Positions 30,097 to 30,126 of a stretch of 64,000 bases of DNA are shown in pieces. Numbering within the stretch: the first letter of the stretch is position 1; each line of letters begins with the position of its first letter. The notes below the pieces were generated by a model. That model was not told the origin of the DNA. It worked only from the letters and a program-made list of their open reading frames with translations, and did no database searches. The position numbers and the translations under genes are program-made. Source of the stretch: Escherichia coli (lineage in GTDB: Bacteria > Pseudomonadota > Gammaproteobacteria > Enterobacterales > Enterobacteriaceae); NCBI RefSeq assembly GCF_044324785.1, contig NZ_CP172127.1; one strand, 5' to 3'.

Positions 30097-30126
30097 AAAA
30101 CGGGAGGCGAAGGTGCCTCCCGTTTT
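30097..30126. terminator. bidirectional rho-independent terminator (12-bp stem AAAACGGGAGGC/GCCTCCCGTTTT, 6-nt loop) shared by envZ and the convergent antitoxin gene
   Basis: Perfect inverted repeat with an A-tract on one side and a T-tract on the other; begins 2 nt after the envZ stop and overlaps the stop codon of ORF 30125-30421. Confidence 0.8.

Follow-up and report, generated by a model that had tools for sequence, protein, structure and literature searches.

The hairpin that follows the envZ stop codon in Escherichia coli is very probably an ancestral two-way terminator of the convergent genes envZ and pckA, which is now shared with a toxin-antitoxin cassette, and no insertion machinery needs to have aimed at it. 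The hairpin was studied in the window, the whole 64-kb stretch of DNA that was analysed, which is 99.9% identical to the record of E. coli strain N3 and contains the genes tex-greB-ompR-envZ, two small genes on the minus strand, pckA and yhgE, in this order. In most Enterobacteriaceae and about 75% of E. coli, a single element located in a short spacer would stop transcription of both envZ and pckA. In the allele described here, the 44-bp tail of this spacer would have been swapped for a 787-bp segment, which comprises a toxin-antitoxin operon, a putative promoter with a single operator and a predicted one-way terminator next to pckA. Transcription of pckA would then stop at the new hairpin, which would also protect the cassette promoter against transcripts that run through from pckA. 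The old hairpin would end the toxin-antitoxin transcript with its pckA-facing side, and envZ would keep the other side.

The hairpin at the end of envZ

The shared hairpin consists of a perfect 12-bp stem, formed by the 5' arm AAAACGGGAGGC and the 3' arm GCCTCCCGTTTT, and the 6-nt loop GAAGGT; the stem reaches 13 bp when the pair T30096·A30127 is counted (Table 1). The earlier note had placed it at 30097-30126, 2 nt past the envZ stop codon and with the stop codon of the antitoxin gene in its far arm, and the sequence bears this out: of the antitoxin stop, which reads TTA on the plus strand (30125-30127), two of three bases lie within the 12-bp arm and all three within the 13-bp stem. The stem is made up of an 8-bp GC core and four A:T pairs at its base. 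Folding energies of -26.5 kcal/mol for the plus-strand RNA and -22.8 kcal/mol for the minus-strand RNA were calculated, with z-scores of -6.5 and -7.7, respectively, and none of 200 shuffled sequences folded equally well. No match to a known RNA family was found in Rfam for positions 29900-31100. In our own census, perfect hairpins with a stem of at least 12 bp and a loop of 3-8 nt occur three times in the whole window, for which simple arithmetic gives a chance expectation of about 0.02. The second of them, TTAAAAAGGCGC-TGAA-GCGCCTTTTTAA at 39903-39930, likewise has the build of a two-way terminator, and the third, GCGCCAGCATCGC-CGGAT-GCGATGCTGGCGC at 60349-60379, has a REP-like look.

A simple terminator scan flagged the shared hairpin on the plus strand alone; the minus strand was missed because the scan counts the A:T pairs as part of the stem and seeks T residues only beyond them. 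When the 8-bp GC core is taken as the stem, the RNA runs on as UUUUAGAU on the envZ strand and as UUUUAUUU on the antitoxin strand, and the GC stem is immediately followed by a U-rich tract on each strand. The symmetric build of a bidirectional terminator, which had been noticed before, is therefore real in terms of its parts, namely an A-tract, a GC stem, a T-tract and a strong fold on both strands, and it predicts activity in both directions. The hairpin is located between convergent genes: in the window, it lies at the stop codons of envZ and the antitoxin gene, and in genomes with an empty site, it lies between envZ and pckA. In all these respects, it resembles other bidirectional intrinsic terminators found between convergent bacterial genes, which also combine an A-tract, a GC stem and a T-tract, provide a hairpin followed by a U-run on either strand, are located in a short spacer between convergent stops and show compensatory changes. 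There is no difference in kind from these ordinary bidirectional terminators; however, the far-side partner of the hairpin has switched from pckA to the antitoxin gene in one allele, the antitoxin stop codon overlaps the base of the stem, and the activity is a predicted one. Beyond annotation, the significance of the arrangement is slight, as it is an ordinary one and a fresh example of a well-known kind of element.

Table 1. Features of the envZ-pckA region, given in positions of the window.
Feature	Position	Strand	Description and basis
envZ CDS	28742..30094	+	450 aa; stop TAA 30092-30094; ORF list and envZ annotation in the 99.9%-identical N3 record
T-rich tail, antitoxin direction	30089..30100	-	minus-strand TTTTATTTACCC; overlaps the envZ stop codon; sequence and minus-strand fold
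Shared hairpin	30097..30126	both	5' arm 30097-30108, loop 30109-30114, 3' arm 30115-30126
T-rich tail, envZ direction	30123..30140	+	TTTTAGATTGTTTTCAAT; sequence and terminator-like site on the plus strand
Antitoxin gene	30125..30421	-	98-aa HTH protein of the HigA-2/NadS type; both A's of the stop codon lie in the hairpin A-tract
Variable segment	30127..30913		787 bp in place of the 44-bp tail GCTTTCTATAAGATACTGGATAGATATTCTCCAGCTTCAAATCA; alignment with K-12 and ST131
Toxin gene	30480..30797	-	105 aa, HigB-2 type, RelE/ParE superfamily
Cassette promoter/operator (putative)	30822..30842	-	-10 TATAAT 30827 to 30822; one TGTAC-N-GTACA-type palindrome 30830-30842
pckA-side hairpin	30864..30894	-	CCCCTTATCC-GTTT-GGATAAGGGG (30871-30894), then seven T on the minus strand (30870 to 30864)
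pckA CDS	30914..32536	-	stop 30914-30916; start at 32536 fits the 540-aa annotated product; ORF list and N3 annotation

Conservation of the hairpin

Among 5426 complete E. coli genomes, a single one failed to match the region. The short-spacer allele, which is free of the cassette, is present in 4074 of the 5426 genomes (~75%), and the cassette allele in 1328, which is about a quarter. In K-12 and ST131, the envZ-pckA spacer measures 75-76 bp and consists of the identical hairpin and the 44-bp tail GCTTTCTATAAGATACTGGATAGATATTCTCCAGCTTCAAATCA, which is followed by the pckA stop codon; besides the shared hairpin, no second strong structure was found in the spacer of these strains. The presence of the identical hairpin in cassette-free genomes implies that it predates the cassette allele, and as the lone strong structure of the empty sites, it is the sole candidate terminator there for both envZ and pckA. 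The view that the cassette met a pre-existing envZ terminator is in agreement with this distribution and with the start of the cassette allele right past the T-tract.

To cover other species, 80 species of the Enterobacteriaceae were sampled by an EnvZ-based scan. In most of them, an A-tract, a GC stem and a T-tract are found within a few nucleotides of the envZ end, and in Kosakonia, Phytobacter, some Citrobacter and others, the entire spacer is 44-60 bp long and holds that hairpin alone. Twenty-four orthologous hairpins were laid out by arm and loop, and the 17 distinct ones among them, which derive from Escherichia, Citrobacter, Salmonella, Enterobacter and one MAG, were aligned with their loops padded by N. 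In this alignment, whose register was set manually from the hairpin arms and which thereby favours pairing, all 197 of 197 cells are paired and both sides have changed in six of the 12 pairs; none of 500 shuffles matched this covariation. Compensatory changes include the replacement of A:U by U:A in Enterobacter and of C:G by U:A in Salmonella diarizonae. Furthermore, the A- and T-tracts are conserved together with the stem across genera. This pattern of conservation looks like that of an intrinsic terminator, probably active in both directions, which is kept under selection.

The 787-bp cassette allele

In cassette-bearing genomes, homology to K-12 ends at the last T of the hairpin and restarts at the pckA stop codon, and the junction is flush with this last T in all 1328 of them. 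The earlier note had proposed to define the insertion boundaries by aligning the junction with a cassette-free spacer; this alignment sets them at 30127-30913 and reveals no target duplication. The term insertion suggests a clean event, which does not apply, since 787 bp replace 44 bp. No flanking direct repeat of at least 9 nt was found at the E. coli junctions, no repeat, terminal inverted repeats included, pairs the two ends of the 787-bp segment, and no recombinase or transposase is encoded by the segment, which contains two toxin-antitoxin ORFs with family matches and no third ORF. Mismatches to K-12 and ST131 are evenly spread over the flanks, with no spike at the junctions. The 44-bp tail shows no similarity to the cassette allele, local alignments being no better than those of shuffled sequences (p 0.4-0.7). 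A cassette remnant as the source of the K-12 tail was ruled out, as BLAST searches over the compared loci matched the tail to E. coli empty sites only. A partial cassette in strain BS-04 (locus L005 1545-2040) turned out to be homopolymer noise and thus an assembly artefact rather than a degraded allele.

The toxin-antitoxin genes and their promoter

According to their family matches, the two small genes are a HigB-2/HigA-2-type toxin-antitoxin pair, in which the antitoxin gene is located downstream of the toxin gene. The toxin matches HigB-2 of the PDB over residues 2-99 (E=1.5e-23) and the Pfam family RelE (PF06296, 27.6 bits with a cut-off of 27). The antitoxin matches HTH_3/HTH_31 of Pfam, NadS of NCBIfam (76.8 bits, cut-off 60) and HigA-2 of the PDB (E=5e-5). 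The best comparison is the HigB-2/HigA-2 system of Vibrio cholerae (PDB 5ja8, 5ja9, 5jaa), with which the pair shares the toxin and antitoxin matches, the toxin-first order and the C-terminal HTH of the antitoxin. In contrast to the V. cholerae system, the predicted E. coli pair is located between chromosomal core genes and not in a superintegron, has just one operator palindrome and lacks its own terminator.

The putative promoter/operator region coincides with the stretch that is conserved upstream of all homologues; a consensus scan detected no -35/-10 pair at this promoter. Two operator palindromes are present in 10 of the 11 homologues outside the envZ-pckA spacer, the exception being Pseudenterobacter, and one is present in the envZ-pckA group. 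In most members of the family, two TGTAC-N3-GTACA palindromes bracket a TTGATT-like -35 element, and the envZ-pckA copies retain the promoter-proximal one. At the other end, homology among the cassette copies of different loci stops at the antitoxin stop codon, and the C-terminus of the antitoxin and the position of its stop are conserved among homologues. In Leclercia, Shimwellia and Pseudescherichia vulneris, a conserved hairpin directly follows the antitoxin stop, and the envZ-pckA and Klebsiella copies are devoid of it. The TAA stop codon of the E. coli antitoxin gene consists of one T and two A's that are provided by the A-tract of the host. Judged by these comparisons, the envZ-pckA copy of the cassette is trimmed at both ends and has no terminator of its own.

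The hairpin on the pckA side

The pckA-side hairpin was absent from the empty E. coli sites, at every site examined; at these sites, 44 bp lie between the shared hairpin and pckA. Citrobacter portucalensis has it as well, in its cassette allele, and Citrobacter sp. Marseille-Q6884 has a hairpin at the equivalent position. As far as can be judged from these alleles, the pckA-side hairpin is part of the cassette-bearing allele, and the earlier idea of a pckA terminator that was left intact by the insertion had to be given up, the hairpin being missing from empty sites. Its predicted role is that of a one-way terminator for pckA and of an insulator ahead of the cassette promoter: pckA is located upstream of the cassette and in the same direction, so that pckA would need a stop of its own and the cassette promoter would need a shield against read-through. 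One ancestral two-way terminator could therefore pass from one convergent partner, pckA, to another, the acquired antitoxin gene, and the acquired segment must then provide a substitute terminator for the displaced pckA. Strains that bear the cassette, Nissle 1917 and ABU 83972 among them, make a natural comparison of two alleles possible for the effects of terminator context on the 3' ends of envZ and pckA.

Homologues of the cassette and other alleles of the spacer

Among the 80 species, the cassette was found at envZ-pckA in C. portucalensis, which carries it as a whole, and in a Pluralibacter MAG, which carries the antitoxin gene only. The latter, from an uncultured Pluralibacter (L044 4384-4677), contains an orphan antitoxin gene of 85% identity in the envZ-pckA spacer, without a toxin gene; the pckA-side hairpin of this spacer is a different one, and the cassette copy looks decayed. 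The distance from the antitoxin stop to the envZ hairpin is -2 nt in E. coli, 16 nt in Citrobacter sp. and 31 nt in C. portucalensis. Since the copies of E. coli and the two Citrobacter share derived features, namely the single operator and the pckA-side hairpin, they have one origin and not three. The cassettes of E. coli and Citrobacter share 78-82% identity, compared to 85-86% for the envZ and pckA flanks, a pattern of divergence that points to an old co-residence with losses or allele exchange. A recent transfer from Citrobacter was ruled out on the basis of these identities and the even spread of flank mismatches.

Homologues with 73-83% identity are located at five other kinds of site, several of which are not convergent terminators, and some are co-directional with the next gene. 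These sites are yfhL/murR in Klebsiella, the site between a tautomerase gene and lamB in K. michiganensis, the site past guaA in Shimwellia, zur/dusA in Leclercia, Superficieibacter, Pseudenterobacter and Pseudescherichia, and a P2-like prophage in Yersinia enterocolitica. In Y. enterocolitica (L094 810-1518), a toxin and antitoxin of 79% identity are encoded beside P2-type tail genes (gpU, tape measure), which suggests prophages as a route of movement for this cassette family. A plasmid as the source was rejected, as the matches above 60% identity in the plasmid collection are records that look chromosomal by their size or their genes (a 4.8-Mb E. coli record and a K. aerogenes record with era-recO-pdxJ-acpS as neighbours), and so was a phage source, with matches of 43% or less in the phage collection. 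At the yfhL/murR site of Klebsiella aerogenes (L006 3328-3390 and 4187-4250; L105, L108), the cassette is polymorphic within the species. A 44-bp direct repeat, which comprises the last 33 bp of murR and a terminator arm, brackets the filled allele, and the cassette is joined inside the murR terminator hairpin, thereby forming a chimeric stem; the same repeat is found in K. variicola.

The envZ-pckA spacer has also received DNA that is unrelated to the cassette. A third allele consists of a plus-strand cluster, which encodes an SMI1/KNR4 family protein and two hypothetical proteins, and possesses its own pckA-side hairpin. It is present in E. albertii, E. whittamii, Escherichia sp. MOD1-EC7003 and rare E. 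coli such as WL297 (L007 4387-7350, L008, L009 and L103 4144-6833), and the insert starts directly past CCCGTTTT, at the same TTTT. In E. whittamii, the hairpin is succeeded by an ERIC-like repeat. In E. coli EC7518 (L004 6397-6414 and 7744-7764), the terminator is split by a copy of the IS4/IS10-like element ISVsa5, which lies in the loop of the envZ hairpin with a 9-bp duplication (GGCGAAGGT). In Citrobacter amalonaticus S646 (L014 4354-4985), the envZ hairpin is broken in its 3' arm by a 629-bp insert that has neither a convincing ORF nor an Rfam match, and a second hairpin, GGGAGGC/GCCTCCC, is located close to pckA in this strain.

Alternative explanations

A literature search found no publications on this cassette or terminator, and published papers and supplements yielded no usable RNA 3' ends for the envZ-pckA site. 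In the curated Term-seq list for K-12 (Adams et al. 2021, PMC7815308), neither strand has a 3' end at 3534400-3534599, and the same study lists a Rho-termination region at K-12 MG1655 position 3535269 (+), antisense to envZ, which is 750 nt beyond the shared hairpin on the pck strand. This Rho region may reflect that some transcripts in pck direction leak past the shared hairpin, or that an antisense promoter is present within envZ. In addition, it has been reported from SEnd-seq that colliding polymerases bring about termination at many convergent gene pairs of E. coli (bioRxiv 10.1101/2022.10.23.513370). One could therefore regard the hairpin mainly as a 3' stabiliser or processing site, with termination taking place elsewhere by Rho or by collision. 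We attach little weight to this idea, as all sequence features of an intrinsic terminator are found on both strands and as the A- and T-tracts, which a pure stabiliser would not need, are kept together with the stem across genera. Both stop codons are located very near the stem, so that a ribosome terminating at either of them may hinder its folding.

With regard to the origin of the cassette allele, the earlier note had suggested a site-specific or terminator-targeted acquisition, in which hairpin terminators would be recognised by the cassette, or by a helper acting on it, and integration would take place at their edge. Several observations fit such a mechanism: the flush junction in all 1328 genomes, the presence of the same cassette family in the same spacer in Citrobacter and of the orphan antitoxin in the Pluralibacter MAG, the Klebsiella join within the murR terminator hairpin with its 44-bp direct repeat, and the ISVsa5 copy and 629-bp noncoding insert that hit the envZ hairpin in other strains. 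Targeting nevertheless appears improbable, since E. coli displays neither a target duplication nor terminal repeats nor a recombinase, the Citrobacter junctions are located 16 and 31 nt from the hairpin, the envZ-pckA copies go back to one event as judged by their shared derived features, and other homologues occupy sites that are not convergent terminators. The identities of cassette and flanks between E. coli and Citrobacter likewise speak for old co-residence and not for repeated targeting, and unrelated inserts also start right past the TTTT, as would be expected from conservation of the terminator alone. The Klebsiella, EC7518 and S646 cases are hints of hairpin-associated joining, in which no targeting mechanism is apparent. 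The simplest reading of three unrelated Escherichia alleles that break at one base is that this base is the edge of the selected sequence; most likely, the join is flush because the terminator would be the first element outward whose bases selection keeps from changing. However, a recombination hotspot at the hairpin would also yield three alleles with one breakpoint. For the reading of genomes, the case cautions against taking a flush junction at a conserved element for more than weak evidence of targeted insertion. It is conceivable, albeit rather doubtful, that the cassette allele is the ancestral state and that the 44-bp empty allele arose by loss, in which case nothing landed at the terminator. 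The divergence of the cassette between E. coli and Citrobacter, which equals or exceeds that of envZ and pckA, the occurrence of both states in phylogroup B2 (ST73 strains with and ST131 without the cassette) and the orphan antitoxin of Pluralibacter as a case of decay in place would agree with such a history. On the other hand, the 44-bp tail is unlike the cassette allele or any other compared spacer and cannot be produced by a simple deletion, among the 80 species only C. portucalensis and the Pluralibacter MAG carry the cassette here, and most other species have short spacers with the shared hairpin alone.

We therefore favour an ancestral terminator of envZ and pckA that came to be shared with the cassette. 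As a speculative addition, which we consider a long shot, terminator hairpins at gene ends might be preferred joining points for toxin-antitoxin cassettes that lack a terminator, via microhomology of A/T-tracts or hairpin arms. If true, such joining would explain why the E. coli antitoxin stop is built from the terminator A-tract, the chimeric murR hairpin and 44-bp duplication of Klebsiella, and the breakpoint past envZ that unrelated inserts have in common. Mobile elements that insert at terminators or palindromes include class C group II introns, which insert after terminators, and REP-targeting IS elements. The cassette allele resembles these in that new DNA starts at the edge of a terminator hairpin; in contrast to them, however, the segment has no reverse transcriptase, intron RNA, transposase, terminal repeats or target duplication, and the position of its junction varies among lineages.
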